A stretch of DNA of 40,180 nt, taken from IMG/VR virus record IMGVR_UViG_3300045988_035205, positions 1 through 40,180 of that record; one strand, written 5' to 3'. The stretch's first letter is position 1; the number at the start of each line of letters is the position of its first letter. Shown piece by piece: positions 24,102 to 40,125 of this stretch. The translations under genes were made by a program, and so were the position numbers. Under the pieces are notes generated by a model. It was not told the origin of the DNA. It made no database searches and saw only the letters and a program-made list of their open reading frames with translations. This stretch comes from a virus.

Positions 24102-26879
24102 ATGGCGTTCGGCAGCGAACTTGGTTCCGCGCATATCAGCGTGTTCCCTTCCATGAAGGGTTTCCGCAGCACGGTCAACAAGGAGGTCGGCGCGAGCGGC
24201 AAGGCCGCGTCGAAGACCTTCGATTCGAGCATGAACGGCGGCAAAAGCGGCGGACTGTTCGGACGCGCGTTCAAAAACGGGTTCAAACAGTCGGCGAACG
24301 CGTTCGGCGCGGACGTGCTGAAATCCTATGAGCGTGACGTGGCGAAATCCACGGCCGCATACCGTCAGTCCATGCTCCAGCAGAAGGCCGCGGCGAATCA
24401 GGTGCGTGCCGCCGAGGAAAGCGTCGCCAATGCCGTCGCCAAGCACGGCGAGGGCAGCACGCAGGCCGAGGCCGCGACCATCAGACTCGAACAGGCGCGG
24501 CTGAAGCTGTCCACCATGACCGACCGGGCGACGCAGGCCGAGAACCGGTTGAAGGATGCGCAGAAGGCGCTCAAGGACGCGCAGGACAATCTCGCTTCCA
24601 GCAGTGGTTCGCTTGGATCGGCGTTCAAGAATCTTGGTTCGGCGATAATCCAGCCGGTCTCCGGCGCGTTCGGACGGGTCAAAAACGCGGCAACGTCGGC
24701 GTTCTCCGGCATCGCCACGAAAGCCCGCGACGGCATGAGCGCTGCCGGCGCTGCCATGCAATCCACCGCGTCACGTCTTACCGCGCCATTGTCTGCGAAG
24801 TTCTCCGCGATGAGCTCGGCCATCGCGGCAAGGATCCCAGCGCCTTTCAAAAACGTCAGCAATGCCATCGGCGGCTATCTCGGCAACGTCGGCGGCGCGG
24901 TCGGCGGCGTGCTTTCGCAGATTCCCGGAGCCGCCGGCAGTGTCGCGTCTGCGATAGGCTCCAAGCTCAAAAGCGGAGCCGACACCGCATGGAATGCGAT
25001 CAGCTCCATGTCTGGCAAGGCCGTCGGCGCGTTGAAGGGTGTTGCCACTGTCGGACTTGCAGGCGTTGGCACCGCCGTCGCGGCTTTGGCAGGCGTCGGC
25101 AAGAGCGCTCTCGACGCATACGCGACATACGAGCAGGCCGTCGGCGGCGTGGACACGCTGTTCAAGGACGCTTCGGGCACCGTGCAGAAATACGCGGCGG
25201 AAGCGTACCGGACAGCCGGAGTGAGCGCCAACGAGTACATGACGCAGGTCACGAGCTTTTCCGCCTCGCTGATCAGCTCGCTCGGCGGCGACACTGCGAA
25301 GGCCGCGGAACTCGGCAACACCGCCATGGTCGACATGTCGGACAACGCCAACAAGATGGGCACCGACATCGAGTCCATCCAGCAGACCTACCAGTCTCTG
25401 GCGCGCGGCAACTACGCCATGCTCGACAATCTGAAGCTCGGCTACGGCGGAACGAAATCCGAGATGGAGCGTCTGATCCAGGACGCGAACAAGGTCAAGC
25501 AGGCGAACGGGGAGATGGGCGACCTGTCCATCGACAAGTTCTCCGACGTGGTGCAGGCGATCCACATCATGCAGGAGCAGATGGGCATCAGCGGCACCAC
25601 CGCCAAGGAGGCCGCGACAACCATCGAGGGCTCTGTCGGCATGATGAAGGCCGCATGGCAGAACTGGCTGGCGGAGCTCGGCAAGGACAATGCCGACATC
25701 AACGGATTGACCAAGCAGCTGGTAGATTCGGTCGGCACGGTCATCGAGAACGTGGGTCCGCGCATCGCGCAGATCATCACCGGCATCACCGCCGCACTGC
25801 CACAACTGTTCTCCTCATTGGGCAGCACGCTGCCGGCACTGGTCATGCAGATTCTTCCGCCAGTGCTCGGAGCGTTGGGACAGCTCGGCACGATGCTGCT
25901 GACCAGCGCGATGACATGGATCTCGACGAGCCTGCCCCAGCTGCTCGCCCAGTTCCAATTGTGGGTCACGTCGACCCTGCCGTCGTTTTTGCAAACCGGA
26001 TTGACGATGGTCACGAACCTCTTGCAGGGCATCGTGCAGGCATTGCCTCAGATCGCGTCCACGGCGGTGACCGTGCTGACGACGCTGCTGGATGGATTGT
26101 CGGCCCAGTTGCCGCAGCTCATCCCTATCGGCATCAACGCCGTCCTTAACCTCGTGCAAGGCATCCTCAACAACCTGCCGCAGATCATCGACAGCGGTTT
26201 GAAGCTTATCCTCGGACTGGCGCAGGGCCTCATCAACGCCATGCCGGACTTGGTAGGCAAGGCTCCGATCCTTATCGGACAACTGGTCGGTGGCATCATC
26301 AATCGTCTCCCGCAGATCCTGCAGGCTGGCGTACAGCTGCTCTTCGCACTGGCCAACGGTTTCATTTCGTCGGTTCCACGGCTTATCGGCGCCATCCCCG
26401 GCATGGTCGGCCAGATCATGCGCGGTTTCACATCGGTTAACTGGGGGAGCGTCGGCCTGAATATCATCACGGGTATCGCGACCGGCATCGCAGGCGCGGC
26501 AGGCAGACTCGTGACCGCCGCAGTCAACGCGGCCACGAACGCGTTGGATTGGGTGAAACGCAAGCTTGGCATCCATTCTCCGTCACGCGTGTTCCGCGAT
26601 CAGGTCGGTGAGATGATCGGCGAGGGCATGGCGGTCGGCATCGACGAGAGCGCGTCGAAGGTGAGGAAGGCTGCCGGACGATTGACTGGCATTCTACCTT
26701 CGCAGGACGCCTCGTATTCCGTCGGCGTCGCCAACGCCTCGCGTGGCGTTAACGCTGCCTCCTACGGCAATGGGGGGAGCGTGACGAACATCACGCAGAC
26801 GTTCAACTATCCGGCCATCGCGCCGACGAGCATTTCCACGCAGCAGAAGCTGCAGACAGCGGCCATGCCGCAATGGTAA
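24102..26879 (+). CDS. Tape measure protein
   Basis: 925 aa, Ala/Gly/Leu-rich and helical with hydrophobic repeats. Canonical position. Confidence 0.9.
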   Translation: MAFGSELGSAHISVFPSMKGFRSTVNKEVGASGKAASKTFDSSMNGGKSGGLFGRAFKNGFKQSANAFGADVLKSYERDVAKSTAAYRQSMLQQKAAANQVRAAEESVANAVAKHGEGSTQAEAATIRLEQARLKLSTMTDRATQAENRLKDAQKALKDAQDNLASSSGSLGSAFKNLGSAIIQPVSGAFGRVKNAATSAFSGIATKARDGMSAAGAAMQSTASRLTAPLSAKFSAMSSAIAARIPAPFKNVSNAIGGYLGNVGGAVGGVLSQIPGAAGSVASAIGSKLKSGADTAWNAISSMSGKAVGALKGVATVGLAGVGTAVAALAGVGKSALDAYATYEQAVGGVDTLFKDASGTVQKYAAEAYRTAGVSANEYMTQVTSFSASLISSLGGDTAKAAELGNTAMVDMSDNANKMGTDIESIQQTYQSLARGNYAMLDNLKLGYGGTKSEMERLIQDANKVKQANGEMGDLSIDKFSDVVQAIHIMQEQMGISGTTAKEAATTIEGSVGMMKAAWQNWLAELGKDNADINGLTKQLVDSVGTVIENVGPRIAQIITGITAALPQLFSSLGSTLPALVMQILPPVLGALGQLGTMLLTSAMTWISTSLPQLLAQFQLWVTSTLPSFLQTGLTMVTNLLQGIVQALPQIASTAVTVLTTLLDGLSAQLPQLIPIGINAVLNLVQGILNNLPQIIDSGLKLILGLAQGLINAMPDLVGKAPILIGQLVGGIINRLPQILQAGVQLLFALANGFISSVPRLIGAIPGMVGQIMRGFTSVNWGSVGLNIITGIATGIAGAAGRLVTAAVNAATNALDWVKRKLGIHSPSRVFRDQVGEMIGEGMAVGIDESASKVRKAAGRLTGILPSQDASYSVGVANASRGVNAASYGNGGSVTNITQTFNYPAIAPTSISTQQKLQTAAMPQW

Positions 26880-27803: not shown

Positions 27804-30800
27804 ATGGCAAAGACTTTGCACGCGCGTCTCGTGGCCTATCGTCCATTCGGTGACCGACTCGGTGTGCTGGCCGAGCCGGTGAGCTTCAGCGCGTCCATGC
27901 TCCACAATGATGATGGCGCAATCAGCATCGAATACTCGCTGCTGTCCGGTGACGCTCAGGCTTTCGACCGCGAGCTTACGGACGGCCTCGAAGTGGCAGT
28001 GGAAGTCTCGGACGGTAGTGGCTTCAGGGAGCCGGATAATGCGCGATTCGTCATCACGGGACGCTCCGGTAAGACGGATGACCGCACCAAGACCGTCACC
28101 TACAGTGGCCAGTCGATTGGCTGGCTGCTGTCAAAGGCGGAAAACAATGATTCCTCGCACCTCATCGCCGATGGCGATAACAAGGGTAAAAGGCCATTTT
28201 ATTCGTCCAATCCGGGCACGATTATCAAGACCCTGCTTGACGAAAACCGTCAGCGTGGTGGCGTGGCCACCGGACTGTCGCTCGGCTTCGATACCGCGAG
28301 GGACGCGGGCGGCGCGGCATGGGCGAGGAAGTACACGCTTTACTATTCCTTGGGCACGGATCTGCAGACCATTCTCAGCTCGCTGGTCAATGGTGGCGGC
28401 TGCGACTGGCGCACAAGCGGCAGGGTACTCAAGCTTTGGAATGCGGACAGCACCGCCTTGAGCCGTGACCTGAGCGAGAGCATTGTGCTGCAATTGGCGC
28501 GTGACATCAGCGAAGCCCCATTCGAGGAGTCCATCGCCGACCTGGCATCAACCATCCTTGTCGAAGGTGACAATAATCTGCTCTTCCGCATGGATAATCC
28601 AGCTGCTCCGACGCCTTGGGGCAAGTGGGAATCCTATAGCTCGCAGGGTGGCGTGTCCGATAAGGATACCGCGCAGGCATTCATGCAGTCCACGCTTGAT
28701 GATGCGGCTAGGGTACGCGGCCAGTACACGCGCGATCTGGTGACTTCCGGCGTGGATAATCTACCGCTCATCGACTTCCACGCCGGCGACTGGATCACCG
28801 CGCCAACAGTCACTCACGGCGAGAAGGTGCGCGTCCAGGAAATCGATTTGAGCATGCGCCAGAACGAGGGCCTATCCTGCTCAATCGCTCTGAACGACAT
28901 CAAGTACGACGCTTCCGTGCGTCAGGCGAAGAAGATCAAGGGCATCACCGGTGGTGCCGCGTTGGCCGGTAGTGAGGGCGGCACGACCGCCTCGTCCGAT
29001 CGTGACCATCGCGTGCCGAAGGCTCCGCTTGGTCTTGTGGCGCAGACTGATGCCTATATCGGCAGCGACGGTTTCGCGCATGGTCTGGCCACCGCCATGT
29101 GGAGTGCGGTCATGCAGGCCACGAACAACACCGCCATCGAGATCTCGAACTATGCCGTCGAGTGGCGCAGGCACGTGGATGGCGCGCCCTGGCATTCCGC
29201 TGGCACGACGGATAAGACGCAGCTTGGCTTCGGCGGTTTGGATTGCGGCACGCAAATCGAGGTGCGCGTCAGGGCTGTGCCGACGTATTCGGACAAGCTT
29301 GGTGAATGGTCGAGCGTTTTCGTGGCCACCGTCGAATCGGACGTGACGCCTTGCTCTGTGCCATCCAAGCCGGTATTGTCGTCCGAGCTTGGCGTGGTGA
29401 CCGTCCACTGGGACGGCAGGACCTCCACCGGCGCGTCGATGGAATCGGACTTCGACCATGTCGAGGTCGGCGAGGGCGCTAACGCGGCCGGCATGACCGT
29501 CATCAGCGCCACGCAGGCAGGTCAGGGCGATTATCTCGTGACCGGTCTGACAGCCGGCTCCCAGCACTCCTACGCCTTGCGCTCCGTCGATCATGCGGGC
29601 AATCGTTCCGGCTGGTCGGCAGTCGCTTCGGTGACGGTCGCGTCGGCGGTGTCGCCGGAAGAGGTCAAGCAGATCCAGAAGGATTTGGCTGACAACAAGA
29701 CGGCGTTGATGGATAATACGGCGAAGCTCGATCAGGCGAGGAAGGATATCGCCGCGAATCAGGCCGCTCAGGCGGATACGGCGAATGCTCTCGAATCCGC
29801 GAAGTCGGACATCAAGGCGAACCAGTCGGCCATCAACTCTGCCAACGCAACGTTGAGTGATAACACCGCGAAGCTGACGCAGGCGCAGAAGGACATTCAG
29901 GCGAATAAGACTGGTCTTGATGCGGCGAATCAGACGCTCTCGCAGGCCAAGGCCGATCTGTCGCAGGCGCGGAGGGACATCGCGCAGACCAAAAGCGACC
30001 TGGCCACGGCGAACGGGGAGATCAGCAAGGCGAAGGAGTCGGCGGCGCAGGCGTATGCCGAAGCCCATAGCAAGAACCATACGTTTCGCGGTCCCGACGA
30101 GCCGAAGGGCAATCTCATCGTCGGTGACCTGTGGCTCAAGACGCAGAAGTATTGGACGAGGTGGAAGGGCGAGAAGAACGCAAGCCCATCACTGCTCGCG
30201 GACTTTTACACGTACTGGACCGGCGCGCCGAACAATTCTCCTTCCGTGCTCGTGCCATTGGCCGACCGCGTGATCGACACGCTTGTCTGGGATGGCTCCG
30301 CTTGGAACCACATGGGCTATGCCGATGTCGAGAAGAACGCAGACGAAATTTCCAAGGCTAAGTCGGATATCGCGGACAATGCCGCGAAGACCACCGACGC
30401 CAAGAAGGCTGCCGAGAACGCCGCTGCCGCAGCGAAAAACGCGCAGGGCACGGCTGACACGGCAAATGGTGCGGCGAAGACCGCGCAGGACACCGCCAAT
30501 GCGGCCAACGCCGCCGCGAAGAGCGCGACCGCGACCGCCGGTCAGGCCAAGGATGCCGCCAATGCGGCGCAGACCGCCGCCGAGAGCGCGAAGAAGACCG
30601 CTGGCAATGCGGAGACTTTGGCGAACACCGCCAACGCTTCGGCCAATGCGGCGAAGTCCGACGCGGCTTCGGCCAAGACGGACGCGTCGAATGCGAAGGC
30701 CACCGCCTCGAATGCGTCGAGTGTGGCCACGCAGGCCAAGGCCACCGCAGACAGCGCGGCACAATCCGCCACCGACGCGGCCACCGCCGCGCAGAAAGCG

Positions 30801-33053
30801 AATACGGCTGCTGCCGCCGCCGCTGGCGTGGCGAACGGCAAGGCCGACGTGCTTATCCAGGGCACGGCACCGGCCACGTCGATGCGCAAGGCTTCGACCT
30901 TGTGGATTGACACCACGAACGGTGCGAACACGCCGAAGCGCTGGAATGGCAGTGCTTGGGTGGCTGTGACCGACAAGGCCGCTACCGACGCCGCGAATGC
31001 GGCTGTCAAGGCGAATGATGCGGCCAAGACCGCTCAAGCCACCGCCGACAAGGCTTCGACCGCTGCCGCCAACGCGGCTTCTCAGGCTAATCAGGCTCAG
31101 GCCGCAGCCAAGAAGGCGCAGACAACCGCCGACGGCAAGAACCTCATCTACCGTGGCCCCGACGAACCGAATCATGACGGTCTGAAGCCGGGCGACATGT
31201 GGTGGCGCACGCAAAAGTATTGGACGAGGTGGAAAGGCGAGAAGAACAATTCGCCGTCCATGCTGGCCGACTTCTACACCTACTGGCAGGGAACGCCGAA
31301 CGCTTCACCAAGCGTCTTGGTGCCGCTCGCTGATCGCGTGGTGGAAGTCCTGACATGGGACGGTACGAGATTCGAGCCATTCGACCTCGTGGCGAACAAC
31401 ATCCTCGCTGCTGGAACCGTGGCCGCGAAGCATCTCGCTGCCGACTCCGTGACCGCTGAGAAGGTCAAGGCCAATGCCATCACGGTGGACAAGCTGGCTG
31501 CGAATTCGGTCACGACTGAAAAGCTGGTGGCCGACGCGGTGACCGCCACGAAACTCGCCGCCAACTCGGTGCAGGCGCGGAACATCGTCGCACTGGCCAT
31601 CACGTCCGACAAGATCGCGGCCAATTCGGTGACTACGGGCAAGCTGAAGGTCACTGAGGATATGACGGTGGCCTTGCTCAACGTCCACAAGATTCAGGCG
31701 GGCGACATTGCGGCTAATGCCATCACGACCGACAAGCTCGCCGCTGGCGCGGTCAATGCGGATAAATTGGCTGCTAATTCGGTGACTGCTGGCAAGGTGC
31801 AGACCAATGCCATCGGCACCGACAAGCTCGCCGCGAATGCCGTCACGACCGCGAAGCTGAAGGTCACTGAGGATATGACCGTGGCGCTGCTGAATGTGCA
31901 TAAGATTCAGGCGGGCGACATCGCCGCCAATGCTGTCACGACCGATAAGCTGGCCGCCAACGCGGTGAATGCGGATAAGCTGGCCGCTAATTCGGTCAAT
32001 GCGTCCAAGATTGTCACTGGTGCCATCACCGCCGACAAGCTCGCGGCAAACAGTGTGACGGCTGTCAAGATCGCGGCTGGCACCATCACGTCCGACAAGG
32101 TGGCGGCGGGCCAATTCAAAGGCTATGTCTTCACCGGCGCGATATTCCAGAGCTCCGAGGCCGAGAACACCGGCATGAAGCTCAACGGCACCGCATTGCA
32201 AATGTGGGACAGCAACCACAATCGCACCGTCTATCTTGACGGCGAAGGCAAGTCGAATCTGCTGACTGGCACGTTCCAAACCCGCACGAGCGGGCACAGG
32301 GTGCGCATCAGCCCGGATTATCAGACCTACATCATCGGCGGATCTGAGACTTTCACCGGTGATGGCATCGAATTCCCCGCTTACAACGGGTCCACCGCCT
32401 ACTTTTCGCATCCGGCCATCGCTTCTGTCATCCAGTCGAATCAGGTCGGCGCGATGGGCGAACTGGACTTGTGGAGCGGACACGTGAGCAAGAACGACCC
32501 TGCCGCGTTCATGTCTCTCAGATCGAAGCCGCGCAAGAAAGGCGGTACCGGCAGCGGCGGCGTCACATCCAGAGTGCATGCCGTGGCGAACACGGATTAC
32601 GACGAGGCGGACGAGAGCAAGAAAAGCAGCGCTTTCCTCACTCTGTCCGGCGATAGCGCGAACGGTTCGGAGTGCTGGCTCGAAGCGCAAGACGCGAACG
32701 GCGAGGTCGGAGTCGGCGCGAACATCGGCACCGGATACGTGTATCTCGGCGGCTATCTTGGCGGCATCACGAACCGTTTTACGTTCCATGCCCAGGCTGC
32801 GTGGAAGGCGTGGTATCCGAATCCCGGCTCGAAGATTGCGACCGGCGCTTCCATGCAAGTCGATTGCACGTTCAGCCCGACGAAATACGGCCACTATTAC
32901 GTCGTCGCGAACGCGGATTCACAATGGGCGGGCATCATCGCGCACCCGATGAACACGGGCGGCCAGAGCGGCTTCACATTGAAGCTGTATAACGCCGACC
33001 AGCCTTGCCCGGTGGATGTTTACGCGGAATTCCTGGCTTATTTGGTCAAGTGA
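27804..33053 (+). CDS. Tail-associated protein / tail fibre (Tal-like N-terminus, FN3-like region, Ala-rich coiled coil, AANSVT-type repeats, C-terminal receptor-binding region)
   Basis: 1749 aa directly after Dit. It has internal duplications (30087-30275 / 31152-31343 and 31641-31745 / 31854-31958). Confidence 0.85.
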   Translation: MAKTLHARLVAYRPFGDRLGVLAEPVSFSASMLHNDDGAISIEYSLLSGDAQAFDRELTDGLEVAVEVSDGSGFREPDNARFVITGRSGKTDDRTKTVTYSGQSIGWLLSKAENNDSSHLIADGDNKGKRPFYSSNPGTIIKTLLDENRQRGGVATGLSLGFDTARDAGGAAWARKYTLYYSLGTDLQTILSSLVNGGGCDWRTSGRVLKLWNADSTALSRDLSESIVLQLARDISEAPFEESIADLASTILVEGDNNLLFRMDNPAAPTPWGKWESYSSQGGVSDKDTAQAFMQSTLDDAARVRGQYTRDLVTSGVDNLPLIDFHAGDWITAPTVTHGEKVRVQEIDLSMRQNEGLSCSIALNDIKYDASVRQAKKIKGITGGAALAGSEGGTTASSDRDHRVPKAPLGLVAQTDAYIGSDGFAHGLATAMWSAVMQATNNTAIEISNYAVEWRRHVDGAPWHSAGTTDKTQLGFGGLDCGTQIEVRVRAVPTYSDKLGEWSSVFVATVESDVTPCSVPSKPVLSSELGVVTVHWDGRTSTGASMESDFDHVEVGEGANAAGMTVISATQAGQGDYLVTGLTAGSQHSYALRSVDHAGNRSGWSAVASVTVASAVSPEEVKQIQKDLADNKTALMDNTAKLDQARKDIAANQAAQADTANALESAKSDIKANQSAINSANATLSDNTAKLTQAQKDIQANKTGLDAANQTLSQAKADLSQARRDIAQTKSDLATANGEISKAKESAAQAYAEAHSKNHTFRGPDEPKGNLIVGDLWLKTQKYWTRWKGEKNASPSLLADFYTYWTGAPNNSPSVLVPLADRVIDTLVWDGSAWNHMGYADVEKNADEISKAKSDIADNAAKTTDAKKAAENAAAAAKNAQGTADTANGAAKTAQDTANAANAAAKSATATAGQAKDAANAAQTAAESAKKTAGNAETLANTANASANAAKSDAASAKTDASNAKATASNASSVATQAKATADSAAQSATDAATAAQKANTAAAAAAGVANGKADVLIQGTAPATSMRKASTLWIDTTNGANTPKRWNGSAWVAVTDKAATDAANAAVKANDAAKTAQATADKASTAAANAASQANQAQAAAKKAQTTADGKNLIYRGPDEPNHDGLKPGDMWWRTQKYWTRWKGEKNNSPSMLADFYTYWQGTPNASPSVLVPLADRVVEVLTWDGTRFEPFDLVANNILAAGTVAAKHLAADSVTAEKVKANAITVDKLAANSVTTEKLVADAVTATKLAANSVQARNIVALAITSDKIAANSVTTGKLKVTEDMTVALLNVHKIQAGDIAANAITTDKLAAGAVNADKLAANSVTAGKVQTNAIGTDKLAANAVTTAKLKVTEDMTVALLNVHKIQAGDIAANAVTTDKLAANAVNADKLAANSVNASKIVTGAITADKLAANSVTAVKIAAGTITSDKVAAGQFKGYVFTGAIFQSSEAENTGMKLNGTALQMWDSNHNRTVYLDGEGKSNLLTGTFQTRTSGHRVRISPDYQTYIIGGSETFTGDGIEFPAYNGSTAYFSHPAIASVIQSNQVGAMGELDLWSGHVSKNDPAAFMSLRSKPRKKGGTGSGGVTSRVHAVANTDYDEADESKKSSAFLTLSGDSANGSECWLEAQDANGEVGVGANIGTGYVYLGGYLGGITNRFTFHAQAAWKAWYPNPGSKIATGASMQVDCTFSPTKYGHYYVVANADSQWAGIIAHPMNTGGQSGFTLKLYNADQPCPVDVYAEFLAYLVK

Positions 33054-33952: not shown

Positions 33953-33977
33953 CCCGTATTTCCCAGTTTTTTTTCAA

Positions 33978-34015
33978 CCCCTGCAATCCACACGGATTGC
34001 GGGGGTTTCGTATTT
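33978..34015 (+). terminator. Intrinsic terminator after the tail module
   Basis: CCCCTGCAATCC (33978-33989), ACAC loop and GGATTGCGGGGG (33994-34005) form a 12-bp stem with one G:U pair, followed by TTTCGTATTT. Confidence 0.7.
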
Positions 34016-34026
34016 AAGGAGACATT

Positions 34027-34200
34027 TTGACTCAGATTCCAGCCGACGCGAACGACGTCATCGACACGCTCTCCGCGCAAATCGGCACTCTCAACAAGCA
34101 AAACGCAATCCTGACCAGCCAACTCGCGGCGGCCATGAAACTGATCCCGCAGGATGTGCTCGACGCAACCAAGGGGGTGGATGATGACAGTGAGGATTAA
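34027..34200 (+). CDS. Small coiled-coil-like ORF (57 aa), TTG start
   Basis: AAGGAGAC lies 4 nt upstream of the TTG. Codons are GC3-rich. It overlaps the start of cassette A. It is below the ORF-track cutoff. Confidence 0.4.
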   Translation: MTQIPADANDVIDTLSAQIGTLNKQNAILTSQLAAAMKLIPQDVLDATKGVDDDSED

Positions 34201-34714
34201 CTGGTTCCCCGACCCGAACATCACGCAGACGTTTGGAGCGTATGCGCCGAGCACCATGAAAGTGGATTTTCCGGTCGTGGCCCGCAGGAACTGGCTGCGC
34301 GCGACCGTGCTCACCGTTGGAGACGGTTACGCGCAGTATTCGCTGCAAGGCGACCGTCTTCCACCGGCTGGAACCTACCACGTGCACTGCTGTGCCTTCG
34401 CGAAGCACGCCAACGCATTCGCCCGCGTCTACACGAAGGTCGGTGGCAAGTATACGGTGCTATTGCAAAAAGAAATAGCGGATGGCACGACGGTCGATGT
34501 CGACGGGACCATAACGATTCCGGACGACTGCGAGGAACTCCTCATCCGCACCACAGCAGGCAAAGTGGTCGGCGCGATAGTCATGCTGAGCGATATTCTC
34601 ATCGAACGCGCCGACACATATGGCACTGCCGTGGGGGGGGGCTTCCGGGCTTCTTCACCGGGGATACGATGCCACGCGATTAAGGCGATTCGTCGGGCGG
34701 GTGATGCCCGATGA
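34181..34714 (+). CDS. RBP-like jelly-roll cassette A. As sequenced (G9) it reads through to 34714. A G10 or G7 allele would end at 34683 with the conserved tail ...FFTGDTMPRD.
   Basis: AAGGGGGTGG RBS. It is a paralogue of cassettes B and C. The conserved C-terminal motif is present but out of frame downstream of the G9 tract at 34633-34641. Confidence 0.6.
   Translation: MMTVRINWFPDPNITQTFGAYAPSTMKVDFPVVARRNWLRATVLTVGDGYAQYSLQGDRLPPAGTYHVHCCAFAKHANAFARVYTKVGGKYTVLLQKEIADGTTVDVDGTITIPDDCEELLIRTTAGKVVGAIVMLSDILIERADTYGTAVGGGFRASSPGIRCHAIKAIRRAGDAR
34633..34641 (+). repeat. Homopolymeric G9 tract
   Basis: gtGGGGGGGGGc. The count was confirmed through two independent ORF-track translations (AVGGGF and PWGGAS). 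Confidence 0.9.
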
Positions 34715-35079
34715 TAGTCACGAACCTATGCACGAGCCCATCCTCGACCATCACCCTGAAAGCCGACAAGTGGGTGAATATCACGACCCTTCCGAGCGTG
34801 AATGGGGCGACATATCAGATCAGCGTCGAGGTGAACGTCACAGGCGGCACTATCTCGATAATCGGAGCGGATGGCGACATCAACGCAAGACAACGTGTCA
34901 GCTACAAGATGATCATCAACAATTCCCATCCGATATCAATGAGTTATCACGTCAAGTCAGGCAGTCCGACCGTCACAGTGACGAACATGCTCATCTGCAC
35001 GTGGGACGAATACCAGGCGAACAAGACCCTGCTCGACGGCATCGAATATTTCGACGGGGATACGATGCCCCGAGCCTGA
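34711..35079 (+). CDS. RBP-like jelly-roll cassette B
   Basis: The N-terminus IVTNLCTSPSS and the C-terminus EYFDGDTMPRA are shared with A and C. Confidence 0.65.
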   Translation: MIVTNLCTSPSSTITLKADKWVNITTLPSVNGATYQISVEVNVTGGTISIIGADGDINARQRVSYKMIINNSHPISMSYHVKSGSPTVTVTNMLICTWDEYQANKTLLDGIEYFDGDTMPRA

Positions 35080-35101
35080 CCCTCGCACTGGGGGTGGTGG
35101 C

Positions 35102-35476
35102 ATGAGTGTCATCACGAATTATGCGTCCAGCCCGCTTGCCGTTTGCACCGTCAATGGTGCTGGCCGTAACGATTTCCCAGGCTGGAATGTCACTAATGAT
35201 GCGCCGGCCGAGCACGTCGTGAGCGCCAGAGTCGAGCTTGTGTCCGGCACTGGCACGATCAGATTCGGATGGGACAGTGATCACGTGCTTGATAAGACGG
35301 GACGTCTGACAGCTTATCCGAGACAAAATATTTTCCCTCAAATCACGGTCATCACCACCGGTGATGCCGTCTGGAAAGTCAGCCACGTTATTGTCACCTC
35401 ACAAGCGGAATACAGTCAGCTGACATCAAAATACGGGCTTGTTTATTTCGATGGCGGCACTATGCCAAAAGACTAA
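35102..35476 (+). CDS. RBP-like jelly-roll cassette C
   Basis: N-terminus VITNYASSPLA, C-terminus VYFDGGTMPKD. GGGGGTGG RBS. Markedly more A/T-ending codons than neighbouring genes. Confidence 0.65.
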   Translation: MSVITNYASSPLAVCTVNGAGRNDFPGWNVTNDAPAEHVVSARVELVSGTGTIRFGWDSDHVLDKTGRLTAYPRQNIFPQITVITTGDAVWKVSHVIVTSQAEYSQLTSKYGLVYFDGGTMPKD

Positions 35477-36043: not shown

Positions 36044-36163
36044 GTGATCGATGTGACCATGACGCCGGAAATGACACCGCAGGGCGACAGTCTGCCGCCC
36101 ATTGACATCCCGGTCGTGTCCGAGACGGATGCGGCCAAGGCTGTCGAAGGATTGGAGGACTGA
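36044..36163 (+). CDS. Small acidic ORF (39 aa) upstream of the endolysin
   Basis: GTG start 5 nt after AAGGAGG. The stop lies 1 nt before the endolysin ATG. Confidence 0.4.
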   Translation: MIDVTMTPEMTPQGDSLPPIDIPVVSETDAAKAVEGLED

Positions 36164-36164
36164 C

Positions 36165-36959
36165 ATGGCAAGCGTAAGCGCTTTGATTAACCGCATGCGT
36201 TACTGGTGCGCCGTGGCCAACATGGGCTACTCGCAGGCGGACCGCTGGAACTTCAACCCCTCAGGTGGCAACTGCGATTGCTCGTCCCTTGTCATCCACT
36301 GTCTCAAGGAGGCGGGCTTCGACACCGGCTCGGCCACCTACACCGGCAATCTGAGCGGCAATCTGACCCGTCGCGGTTGGATTCGTCTGCCGGCGAACGG
36401 CAGCCCGCAGCCTGGCGACATCCTGCTCAACGACGTGCACCACGTGGCCGTCTATCTGGGCAGCGGCAAGCTCGCGCAGGCGTCCATCAGCGAGCGGGGT
36501 ACCGCCTACGGGAAGGCTGGCGATCAGACTGGCCGCGAAACCAACATCCGCGCCTACTACAACTATCCGTGGAGCTGCTACCTCCGCTACGGCGGCGGAA
36601 ACACCTCTTCGGCATCCACTGGCGCATTGGCCGTGGATGGCAATGTCGGCCCGGCCACCGTGCGCCGTTGGCAGCAGGTGATGGGCACTGCGGTGGATGG
36701 CATCATCAGCGGCCAGCAGGTGCCTGACGAACGCACCTACTGGCGTCCGGCCATCGATTCGAGCGTGGTTCGCTACGGTGCTGGCGGCAGTGATCTGATC
36801 CGCGCCGTGCAGCGTCGCCTGGGCTGTGGTGTTGATGGTCTGCTTGGCCCTGCCACCATTCGCGCCATCCAAGCGCACTACGGCTTGGCGCAGGACGCAT
36901 CATTCGGTCCTGGTACGGCACGCGCCTTGCAGACGGCACTCAATCAAAACCGATTCTAA
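36165..36959 (+). CDS. Endolysin: Cys/His peptidoglycan amidase- or peptidase-type catalytic domain plus two PG-binding-like repeats
   Basis: YSQADRW...DCSSLVIHCL...GDILLNDVHHVAVYLG are the catalytic Cys/His motifs. The C-terminal part has DGNVGPATVRRWQ and DGLLGPATIRAIQ repeats. Confidence 0.8.
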   Translation: MASVSALINRMRYWCAVANMGYSQADRWNFNPSGGNCDCSSLVIHCLKEAGFDTGSATYTGNLSGNLTRRGWIRLPANGSPQPGDILLNDVHHVAVYLGSGKLAQASISERGTAYGKAGDQTGRETNIRAYYNYPWSCYLRYGGGNTSSASTGALAVDGNVGPATVRRWQQVMGTAVDGIISGQQVPDERTYWRPAIDSSVVRYGAGGSDLIRAVQRRLGCGVDGLLGPATIRAIQAHYGLAQDASFGPGTARALQTALNQNRF

Positions 36960-37404: not shown

Positions 37405-38214
37405 ATGGGCATCAGACAGCAGACGATTGACGATTATGGGTCGTTCGTGGAGAAATTCAAGCCGAAGAAGACCACGGATGACTGCTACACCCCCCCCGCA
37501 GTGTATGGGGTGATAAAAGACTGGGCTTGCCGGGAATACGGTATAGACCCTGATAAGGTGGTGCGCCCGTTCTATCCGGGCGGGGACTACGAGCGGTTCG
37601 ACTATTCGGGCGGTGCGGTGGTTGTGGATAATCCGCCGTTCAGCATCCTGTCGAAGATCTGCACGTTCTATCGGACGGAGCAAATTCCGTTCTTCCTGTT
37701 CGCGCCGTATCTCACGATCTTCTCCAGCACGTCGCGCAACGGAGCGCACATGATCGTCACGGATTCGACCATCGAATACGCGAACGGCGCGCAGGTCAAC
37801 ACGTCGTTCGTGACGAGTTTCGGTGATGACCTGATCCGCACCGCGCCGGATCTGGCCAACGCGATAGACGAGACCGTGAAGCGCGTCAGGAAAGAGCAAC
37901 GCAGGCATCCGCCGAAATACGCGTATCCGCGTGAACTGCTTACCGTGAGCAGGCTCGGGAAGATCGGCAGGCAGGTCGAGTTCCGCGTCAAGGCTTCGGA
38001 CGTTGCGTTCACGAGGGCTCTCGACTCGCAGAAGGCCGTGAAGAAGGCCATCTACGGCGGCGGCTATCTCCTGAGCGAAGCTAAGGCCGCGGAACTGAAG
38101 GCCGCGGAACTGAAGGCCGCAGAACTAAAGGCCGCAGAAGACGTGACAGTCTGGCCTCTCTCCGAAACCGAAAGGCGGATCATCGAAAACCTCGCGCAAG
38201 AATCGCGCGGTTGA
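37405..38214 (+). CDS. Orphan DNA methyltransferase (amino-MTase type, NPPF motif); no cognate nuclease in the window
   Basis: VVVDNPPFS (motif IV-like) and CYTPPAVY near the N-terminus. It is a stand-alone gene between two terminators. The exact family and target base are unverified. Confidence 0.6.
   Translation: MGIRQQTIDDYGSFVEKFKPKKTTDDCYTPPAVYGVIKDWACREYGIDPDKVVRPFYPGGDYERFDYSGGAVVVDNPPFSILSKICTFYRTEQIPFFLFAPYLTIFSSTSRNGAHMIVTDSTIEYANGAQVNTSFVTSFGDDLIRTAPDLANAIDETVKRVRKEQRRHPPKYAYPRELLTVSRLGKIGRQVEFRVKASDVAFTRALDSQKAVKKAIYGGGYLLSEAKAAELKAAELKAAELKAAEDVTVWPLSETERRIIENLAQESRG
37490..37497 (+). repeat. Homopolymeric C8 tract inside the methyltransferase 5' region
   Basis: acCCCCCCCCg encodes T-P-P at codons 29-31. 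Confidence 0.9.
38083..38139 (+). repeat. 15-bp in-frame tandem repeat (about 3.8 copies) encoding (KAAEL)n
   Basis: AAGGCCGCGGAACTG x2, AAGGCCGCAGAACTA, then the partial AAGGCCGCAGAA. Confidence 0.85.
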
Positions 38215-38955: not shown

Positions 38956-40125
38956 ATGGCCTACACGATCCGCCAATACCAGACGAAAAGCGGAAAAAGA
39001 TACGAAGTCAGATACCGTAAGCCGGACGGCACGGACACAGGCAAACGCGGCTTCAAACGCAAAATGGACGCCGATGCCTGGGGCGCAGCGAACGTGACCA
39101 CAGCTAAAAGCGTCGGAGCGTACATCGACCCACAAGCCGGAAGACGCTTGGTCGAAGACTTCTGGGAGCCATGGCTGGCCGCAAAAAAGACCAAGGCCAA
39201 ACCAAGCTACATCAAGTCATTGGAGGATGCTTGGCGCGCGCATGTCATGCCTCAATGGGGAGTACGCGAAGTCCAGTCCATCACAATGGACGAGGTGCAG
39301 CGGTGGGTCACCGATCTGGCTGGCAGGCGCAGCGCGTCAGTGACCATCCGTGCTGAAAACCTCCTGCGCAGTCTCATGGAGAGGGCAAAGGCCGATCGGT
39401 GCATCCACGACAATCCATGCGACGGCATCGAGCTGCCGCGCAAGCAGGTGCGGAAGCATGTCTATCTGTCGGCCGATGAATTGTCTCGTGTGGCGATGCA
39501 GTGCGGGTGGCGTGAGCCGATCGTGCTGACCTTGGGCCTGTGCGGCATGAGGTGGGGCGAGCTCGTGGCGCTCCGTGTCGAGGATGTCGATCTGCAACGC
39601 TGTCGACTGCATATATATAGGAGCATCACGCGTCTTTCCAGCAGGATGGTGGAGACCGACCCGAAGACCCATGATGGACGCTCGGTGATGTTCCCCTTGG
39701 TGTTGCGTCCGCTGCTCGCCAAGCAATGCGAGGGGCGCGAGCCGTCCGATTTTCTTTTCACCGCTCCCGGCGAGCCTCTGGACGAACCGATGGGCAACGG
39801 CTGGAATCCGACGCGGCACGATGGGTGGTTCGCGGTGGCGCTTCGCCGCGCGGGCGTGGAGCGTGGCCACATGACGATTCACGATCTGCGGCATACCGCC
39901 GCTTCGCTCATGGTGCAGTCCGGCGCTAATGTCAAGACCGTGCAGCGGCAGCTCGGCCACAAGTCGGCCGCGATGACGTTGGACGTGTACGCGGACCTGT
40001 TCGACGATGATCTGGACGACCTGTCGGAGCGTATGGGCGGTCTGCTGTTTTCGCAGGATGTGGGCAAAATGTGGGCAAAAGCGACGCAAGGCATTGATGG
40101 AACCGTTGAAACGGCAAGTGTCTGA
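38956..40125 (+). CDS. int: Tyrosine-type site-specific integrase
   Basis: N-terminal arm-binding-like domain (YEVRYRKPDG), a SAM-like core-binding domain, and a catalytic region with MRWGEL, HDLRHTAASL and LGHKSAAMTLDVYADL (R, H-x-x-R, Y). The gene ends 14 nt before attR. Confidence 0.9.
   Translation: MAYTIRQYQTKSGKRYEVRYRKPDGTDTGKRGFKRKMDADAWGAANVTTAKSVGAYIDPQAGRRLVEDFWEPWLAAKKTKAKPSYIKSLEDAWRAHVMPQWGVREVQSITMDEVQRWVTDLAGRRSASVTIRAENLLRSLMERAKADRCIHDNPCDGIELPRKQVRKHVYLSADELSRVAMQCGWREPIVLTLGLCGMRWGELVALRVEDVDLQRCRLHIYRSITRLSSRMVETDPKTHDGRSVMFPLVLRPLLAKQCEGREPSDFLFTAPGEPLDEPMGNGWNPTRHDGWFAVALRRAGVERGHMTIHDLRHTAASLMVQSGANVKTVQRQLGHKSAAMTLDVYADLFDDDLDDLSERMGGLLFSQDVGKMWAKATQGIDGTVETASV
40058..40079. 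repeat. Paired ATGTGGGCAAA repeats in the right att arm, inside the int 3' end; candidate arm-type integrase site
   Basis: ATGTGGGCAAA occurs twice in tandem. The 17-nt core is identical to 131-148 and lies 63 nt before the attR core. Confidence 0.55.

Follow-up and report, generated by a model that had tools for sequence, protein, structure and literature searches.

The window analysed here is the whole stretch of 40,180 nucleotides (nt) of the IMG/VR virus record IMGVR_UViG_3300045988_035205, a siphovirus-type prophage of the Bifidobacterium adolescentis group. Between its tail genes and the endolysin gene, downstream of a terminator-like hairpin, lies a module of small genes on the plus strand that includes the three paralogues termed here cassettes A, B and C. 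The first of them is interrupted by a run of nine G residues (G9, 34633..34641, plus strand), which codes for a glycine linker between the body of cassette A and a C-terminal peptide. The body (34184..34632, frame 2; MTVRINWFPDPNIT...TAV) is predicted to form a beta-sandwich resembling carbohydrate-binding modules (CBMs), as judged from homologues, an AlphaFold2 (AF2) model and Foldseek. Cassette B (34711..35079; 122 amino acids, aa) ends in ...EYFDGDTMPRA and is preceded by a Shine-Dalgarno (SD)-like GGTGAT at 34700-34705, and cassette C (35102..35476; 124 aa) ends in ...VYFDGGTMPKD. The common features of the three paralogues are an N-terminal M..xN....P pattern and a C-terminal peptide of the form (L)PG.(Y/F)F.G.TMP...

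Three reading frames leave the tract, all on the plus strand. The ON frame (34642..34683, frame 1) encodes the family C-terminus LPGFFTGDTMPRD followed by TAA and is out of frame with the body in the G9 allele. As sequenced, the open reading frame (ORF; 34154/34184..34714, frame 2) reads ...TAVGGG and then continues into FRASSPGIRCHAIKAIRRAGDAR; this OFF-short tail (34643..34714) stops at a TGA (34712-34714) inside the ATGA of the cassette B start. The OFF-long frame (34644..35105, frame 0) belongs to G8 and G11 alleles and stops at a TGA (35103-35105) inside the ATGA of the cassette C start. An earlier note on this DNA had proposed that the G9 run splits the cassette A body from the family C-terminus and that G10 or G7 would restore the motif. 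Position and frames were confirmed, and in silico alleles of G10 or G7 indeed joined the body in frame to LPGFFTGDTMPRD, while an in silico G8 allele gave a third product extending to 35105. The motif also proved to be out of frame with the body, as had been stated, but the label '+1' has to be corrected, since one added G corresponds to a -1 shift of the ribosome; likewise the tail is unrelated to the family and ends in the ATGA overlap with cassette B, but comprises 23 aa instead of the 24 reported. A coding homopolymer of about 7 nt or more whose length toggles between full and altered products is what is expected of a contingency locus.

Although the run is the longest homopolymer in the window, its mere existence is unremarkable, because 0.2-0.9 G/C runs of 9 or more are expected in the window by chance (a mononucleotide model predicts 0.9, in agreement with the figure of about one given before, and a first-order Markov model 0.19); it is the position that carries the argument. 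Codon usage was examined as well: GGG is the rarest glycine codon of the phage (5.8% of Gly codons), the probability of three successive GGG codons is 2e-4, and the remaining Gly triplets in the window use mixed codons. The relative MT836445.1 (L001) has a different cassette A body, the same junction and an interrupted tract, GGGGGGCGG. Between the same flanks, its junction has one more base and is read in frame to ...GGRLPGFFSGDTMPRD and a stop (also given as ...ALGGRLPGFFSGDTMPRD and a stop). Therefore the motif frame is authentic, and the window lacks a single base to reach it.

The earlier note had suggested comparing the tract length in related prophages, and this comparison delivered the central result: the place of the tract is conserved and its length varies. 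With a 25-mer from 3' of the tract, 33 loci carrying G7 to G16 were retrieved from IMG/VR. A metagenome scan, whose pattern demanded G6 or more together with LPGFF-coding DNA, added 117 loci, and species-representative genomes a further 3, so that 153 loci were available. The lengths in these were 6 (4 loci), 7 (15), 8 (24), 9 (57), 10 (42), 11 (6), 12 (3), 14 (1) and 16 (1). As a second sample, 80 IMG/VR loci were drawn through cassette B only, blind to the tract; 79 of them gave lengths of 5 (1), 6 (1), 7 (4), 8 (8), 9 (34), 10 (25), 11 (3), 12 (2) and 16 (1), and an uninterrupted run of G7 or more was found in 77/79. Overall, the tract ranges from G5 to G16 with a mode of 9-10 in the related loci of gut metagenomes, IMG/VR and isolates. 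These number about 230, which is an upper figure, since the two IMG/VR samples have some contigs in common. The tract accompanies at least 10 types of A body with less than 50% identity to each other, and several lengths occur within each type. A distant clade with the peptide LPSFFTAGTAPY shows the same layout and has the tract, too. Relatives without a tract were sought among the B-selected loci, to see whether the open frame decays in them, and essentially none were found.

The tract and motif DNA were also found in metagenome-assembled genomes labelled Collinsella and Deltaproteobacteria (L036, L037). The match in L037 is probably due to chance, the downstream frame being unrelated, and the Collinsella contig may represent DNA of a Bifidobacterium prophage that was binned wrongly.

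Long G runs are error-prone, and it has to be asked whether the assembly of the window simply miscounted a G10 (or G7) of a phage with a normal cassette A. The ON frame is only one base away, the nearest relative (L028) is G7 and ON, and 8/153 loci end less than 60 nt from the tract (e.g. L006, L049, L066, L086, L092, L105; one of the eight ends in G16), so that assemblies seem to break there, as expected with read disagreement or a drop in coverage. We nevertheless regard a miscount in the window as unlikely. Its allele, a G9 preceded by T in the OFF-short state, is the commonest single configuration (18 of about 50 T-preceded tracts), and L007 and L011 have it together with the same body type; it was also seen at 44x coverage. 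Among pairs of loci with identical 800-nt flanks the tract length was equal in 5/6 and different in 1/6, whereas it differed in 39/44 of the pairs with 5-16 mismatches per 800 nt flank (0.6-2%), against a random expectation of 73%. Length calls are therefore reproducible, and the tract evolves far faster than its flanks; such polymorphism among close relatives, far above the substitution rate, is typical of contingency loci. SPAdes contigs at 9-68x coverage comprise G8 to G11 and all three states. As an error control, the homologues of cassette B, which lacks a homopolymer, are nearly constant in length (best 120), while those of cassette A fall into three sharp length classes. The polymorphism of the DNA across the family stands even if the window itself should be miscounted.

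All three products predicted from the window occur among natural homologues. The 153 loci include 58 ON, 54 OFF-short and 38 OFF-long alleles, the B-selected sample 33, 29 and 14, and the best 120 protein clusters, read from their tails, 41, 39 and 39; taken together, about 40% are ON, 37% OFF-short and 20-25% OFF-long. Member counts of the clusters were left out of these frequencies, since 90% clusters can mix states. ON alleles with two and with three glycines both exist, because the tract codes for a flexible linker. The earlier statement that both frames are organised was borne out as well. The OFF-short frame stops 61-70 nt past the tract in 144/153 loci, at the ATGA of the next start where this was read directly (window, L155 and L156). 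The out-of-frame motif is intact in 88/92 OFF alleles of relatives, a count in which the LPGFF portion is fixed by the metagenome ascertainment and the remainder of the motif is free. OFF alleles are therefore not decaying pseudogenes.

These counts also bear on neutral decay, by which cassette A would be dispensable or dying in largely defective prophages and the tract unselected. Frame states close to the values of mutation alone and a G9 mode in any frame would suit such a decay. A gene in decay, however, should accumulate stops and lose its tract through point or synonymous changes. We consider it very improbable, since in addition to the intact motifs the tract is unbroken in the B-selected loci despite its rare codons, the bodies are open in at least 10 diverged types and the third frame is actively kept open (see below). 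GGG is disfavoured and the gene is frameshifted in most genomes, yet the run is almost never broken; selection acting on the run as such is the best explanation for this. A repeat preserved in unfavoured codons and without interruption is a further mark of a contingency locus.

A different account would leave the DNA unchanged and obtain the full protein, perhaps all three products, by recoding, that is by ribosomal -1 frameshifting on G_GGG_GGG or by slippage of RNA polymerase. The sequence at 34633-34639 formally fits the pattern X_XXY_YYZ in the 0 frame, and the tidy state of all three frames would suit their simultaneous use. For productive transcriptional slippage, A/T runs are the best-documented sites. 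With DNA lengths from 5 to 16 there is no fixed heptamer, and relatives occupy all three frame relations. No stimulatory RNA structure is evident downstream: the fold of 34625-34725 is unexceptional (z = -0.93 against shuffles), and its main helix merely pairs the G run. Recoding may contribute, but it is not needed and cannot account for the family-wide DNA pattern, and we assign it a low probability as the explanation.

The G8/G11 frame crosses the whole of cassette B in its -1 frame, over about 150 codons, to the TGA at the cassette C start. This frame is devoid of stops in 118/121 loci and in 77/80 loci of the second sample, whereas the +1 frame of cassette B contains 4-11 stops. From the mean -1-frame stop density of the window genes, the probability of 123 open codons is 0.03; calculated for each type of cassette B, it is 0.004-0.18 with synonymous recoding and 0.001-0.08 with codon permutation. 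Nine of 11 B clusters with less than 70% identity are open in the -1 frame. The most direct trace is found in codon choice: in cassette B a third-position T precedes a codon beginning with AA, AG or GA, a combination that would make a stop in the -1 frame, in only 7/3074 cases (0.23%), as compared to 16.2% elsewhere in B, while the corresponding values for the paralogue C are 12.3% and 22.0%. A test at the level of alignment columns, which ignores the number of sequences, gave p = 0.008 for B; C showed no effect. No stop avoidance was seen in the control -1 frames of A bodies and C genes, which carry 1-11 stops. In the window, the -1 frame of cassette A itself is also open; this was rejected as chance, as relatives carry 1-11 stops there.

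The boundaries of the third frame are equally regular. It ends at ATGA in 114/121 loci, the spacer between A and B is a multiple of three in 118/121 loci, and the distance from the end of B to the alternative stop is always 2 modulo 3 (20, 23, 29 or 5 nt). This openness could be the trace of an independent overlapping gene (ATG 34704..35105, 133 aa), for which the conserved open frame and a conserved ATG or GTG 7 nt before the B start may be cited. At matched protein divergence, though, synonymous sites have changed as much in B as in the control gene C. Therefore only the openness of the overlapping frame is constrained and not its amino acid sequence. In addition, the putative product is rich in R, H, D and Q and without a family, and the conserved ATG lies within the SD-like GGTGAT of cassette B. 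An overlapping gene thus appears improbable to us, and the pattern points to a path for read-through, not to an overlapping protein with a function. That selection keeps a third frame free of stops, a tidiness beyond the two frames first noticed, is a new finding.

In the distant clade the three endings follow the same plan, with 12 aa in one frame, about 20 aa to an ATGA in the second and 416-500 nt open to a GTGA in the third. Some of its members possess a further upstream cassette with its own run of G9-G11 about 900 nt 5' of the main tract (L156 2497-2506 and L155 2558-2567; also L080, L116 and L131), and therefore tract-bearing cassettes can stand in tandem. The annotated 260-aa gene of L156 (2222-3004) consists of such a cassette body, with its own G10, and the out-of-frame read-through of the next cassette, ending at the A start.

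Information on the role of cassette A was obtained from its fold. The AF2 model of an ON-form homologue (P0008; predicted local distance difference test score, pLDDT, 85; predicted template modelling score, pTM, 0.82) shows a beta-sandwich over residues 1-147, with disorder in the Gly linker and in the C-terminal peptide. The pLDDT of the peptide is below 50, which suggests that it is a flexible tail. In Foldseek the model matched CBM4, 22, 61, 16 and 6, with E-values of 3e-7 to 1e-5 against CBM4/22/61/16 and CBA120 TSP4, and also CBM-like domains of phage tailspikes, tail fibres, minor tail proteins, BppU and neck appendages; tail-fibre and minor-tail domains of BFVD were among the matches. 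Cassette A is consequently assigned to the beta-sandwich (jelly-roll) fold of CBMs, and its earlier description as similar to a receptor-binding protein is backed by this modelled fold and by the gene position. The AF2 model of cassette B reached a pLDDT of 39. The family of window-type A proteins is narrow: 1.84 billion representatives include 41 of its clusters at 50% identity.

From these observations we consider it likely that the G9 run is a contingency locus, a homopolymer kept in three Gly codons of the cassette A linker. The slipped-strand phase variation proposed before is supported by the conserved place of the tract with its length of G5-G16, by three frequent states, by the intact motif of OFF alleles, by the slippage documented for G10/G11 tracts in the host genus (PMC9187656) and by the CBM-like fold of the body, which phage tail proteins also show. 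Slipped-strand mispairing at replication would alter the tract length and thereby move translation among three frames. With the body type of the window, G7, G10 and G13 would yield the complete 166-aa cassette A. G9 would swap the family peptide for 23 unrelated residues, with the stop in the ATGA of the B start, and G8 or G11 would lead over about 150 codons through B, in the stop-free frame kept by selection, to the stop in the ATGA of the C start. Cassette A presumably requires the C-terminal peptide for its function, which may consist in docking of the peptide onto the tail. As both OFF stops lie on the next start codons, ribosomes may be handed over there, by which polarity on the downstream cassettes would be avoided; the output of B and C might be altered by the same arrangement. 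In the G8 frame the ribosomes would cross the SD sequence and the start of B, and a stop inside B could leave the rest of the module untranslated, which a frame open to the C start would therefore spare.

Ribosomes that stop at or beside a downstream start codon after leaving their frame are known from the MS2 lysis gene, which is expressed after frameshifting in the coat gene, and from translational coupling of the ATGA type in operons. What would differ here is that a heritable change in DNA length chooses the frame ahead of the putative reinitiation. The avoidance of polarity is plausible because OFF alleles of G-tract genes in Bifidobacterium breve progressively lose transcription past the premature stop (PMC9187656).

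Several points weigh against this interpretation. The metagenome pattern introduced an ascertainment bias into the larger sample, and long G runs have certainly been miscounted in some assemblies. G9 is the modal length in ON as well as in OFF contexts and only about 40% of the loci are ON, so the state distribution looks like a mutational equilibrium, and selection on the state in lysogens may be weak or absent. Searches of Pfam and PHROGs with A, B, C and their neighbours returned no family for A, B or C; their function therefore rests on fold and position, and for the putative role in the virion it is the position between the 1749-aa tail protein and the lysis genes that can be named. High-rate, reversible switching in one lysogen or phage population is finally something that we infer.

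A more far-reaching model, which we regard as possible but doubtful, would make the tract a three-position selector that re-weights which of three paralogous sugar-binding modules the virion carries. In frame 1, A would be complete; in frame 2, A would be disabled and ribosomes delivered onto the B start; and in frame 3, the B start would be occluded and B crossed in a frame kept open for that purpose, with delivery onto the C start. A second variable tract (C7-C9) in the gene at 37405-38214, which encodes a DNPPF motif, would then act as an independent extra switch.

This second tract, C8 at 37490-37497 in the plus-strand ORF 37405-38214, is the second conserved variable homopolymer of the prophage family; apart from it and the G tract, no G/C run of at least 8 recurs in 1.2 Mb of related loci. 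Among 27 of these loci, the 14 with C8 keep an ORF of 200-248 codons, while the 6 with C7 and the 7 with C9 reach a stop after 8-23 codons. The product belongs to phrog_21498 (no assigned function) and has no sequence match in Pfam or the PDB. It reads DCYTPP at the tract and contains VVDNPPFS, which resembles motif IV of N6-adenine methyltransferases, and is a candidate phase-variable methyltransferase.

Bifidobacteria are key gut commensals, whereas their phages are hard to propagate and the rules of their host range are obscure. If a heritable and reversible switch operates in a host-recognition-type gene in hundreds of human gut samples, each lysogen would release mixed virions, which would bear on the difficulty of obtaining plaques and on phage-host dynamics in the infant and adult gut. 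For annotation, it is relevant that two thirds of cassette A genes look 'frameshifted' or 'fused'. The stop-free overlapping frame is moreover a clean, testable case of selection on the 'wrong' frames of a contingency locus.

Switches of a related kind have been reported from other phages and from the host genus. Fletchervirus phages of Campylobacter are described, in PMC10877375 and PMC11959909, which cite Sorensen et al. 2021 (Cell Rep 35:109214), as carrying hypermutable polyG tracts in receptor-binding-protein genes. The likeness lies in an intragenic poly-G tract in a host-recognition-type gene whose length switches the frame, which in Fletchervirus leads to phenotypic subpopulations. These, however, are virulent myoviruses of a Gram-negative host, while we deal with a temperate siphovirus-type prophage. 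Here, moreover, the tract belongs to a linker and leaves 13 codons to the end, the two OFF frames terminate at the starts of the following genes, and one of them is kept open through an entire paralogue. In a 2025 review, homopolymer phase variation of phage receptor-binding proteins is still called an exceptional case. According to the abstract of Gomez, Barrick and Waters (bioRxiv 10.1101/2025.10.21.683753), T2, T4 and other lytic phages have contingency loci, likewise short homopolymers in phage genes, with reversible frameshifts as bet-hedging; those coliphage tracts were found by deep sequencing, and a three-frame organisation does not appear in that abstract.

Within the genus, the genes for sortase-dependent pili of B. 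breve UCC2003 are switched ON and OFF by replication slippage at G tracts (Penno et al. 2022, PMC9187656). Error-corrected sequencing revealed that the G10 and G11 tracts are heterogeneous within a culture (6.5% G9 at the G10 tract and a mixture of 37/59/3% at the G11 tract), and the mixture shifts in the mouse gut (PMC9187656). Host genus and kind of tract are thus the same. In B. breve, however, a chromosomal pilus gene is split in two ORFs and the OFF alleles suffer polarity, whereas in the prophage gene the OFF layout appears to be built to leave no untranslated stretch.

The Rin shufflon of dnaJ2-integrated bifidobacterial prophages (Mavrich et al. 2018, PMC6109161) is similar in location, as small variable receptor-binding modules lie between tail and lysis genes and are diversified. 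There, an adjacent armless tyrosine invertase inverts DNA at 11-bp rix sites, which flank the cassettes and are in part inverted, and joins a constant N-terminus to variable C-termini (PMC6109161). Apart from the tandem of small variable genes at this place, little suggests that the cassettes are shuffled by such site-specific inversion. The rix site TTCCCTAACCC has 0 matches in the window with up to 1 mismatch, and no significant inverted repeats were detected. The cassettes are complete, lie on one strand and have their own starts; no recombinase is encoded between tail and lysis genes, the only one being the integrase (38956-40125). In contrast to Rin, it is the body that varies and the 13-aa C-terminus that is constant, and inversion is virtually out of the question. 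The literature search gave no description of the prophage tract, which is no proof of absence. What seems to be new is the presence of a contingency locus in temperate gut phages of a widespread lineage, together with a three-frame layout in which a stop-free overlapping frame is maintained by selection.

The further features of the window agree with a prophage of this type. The gene for the tape measure protein lies at 24102-26879, that for the 1749-aa tail protein at 27804-33053, the endolysin gene at 36102-36959 and the tyrosine integrase gene at the position given above. Homologues of cassette B (n=1115; almost all of the best 120 of 1115 have 122 aa) include a hypothetical protein of B. 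adolescentis, and a related locus is present in B. ruminantium DSM 6489. A small ORF of 57 aa heads the module (34027..34200, plus strand; TTG start, SD sequence AAGGAG), and its stop overlaps the start region of cassette A. The true start of cassette A is most likely the ATG at 34184 (or 34181) and not 34154; database homologues begin at MTVRINWF.

The hairpin just 5' of the module (33976..34007, plus strand) has 14 pairs. Directly 5' of it lies an intergenic T8 run (33967-33974), for which T5, T6 or T8 occurs in relatives; this is probably ordinary non-coding indel variation. The T-run at 33967 and the C-run at 37490 were considered as neutral homopolymer controls and set aside, the first being intergenic and the second itself a variable tract.

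Cassettes B and C show 5-10% protein divergence versus only about 3% synonymous codon differences, with constant termini. This pattern suggests a ratio of nonsynonymous to synonymous substitution (dN/dS) near 1, or else diversifying selection or patchy recombination that affects the central part of the proteins. Within the 1749-aa tail protein, a segment of about 60 aa (...KYWTRWKGEKN.SPS.LADFYTYW.G.PN.SPSVLVPLADRV...) occurs twice in near-identical form, and there are long runs of an 'AANSVT..KL'-type repeat; relatives such as L001 have a shorter or rearranged version of the gene. Just 5' of the tape measure gene, the ORF 23466-24077 matches tail assembly chaperone PHROGs.

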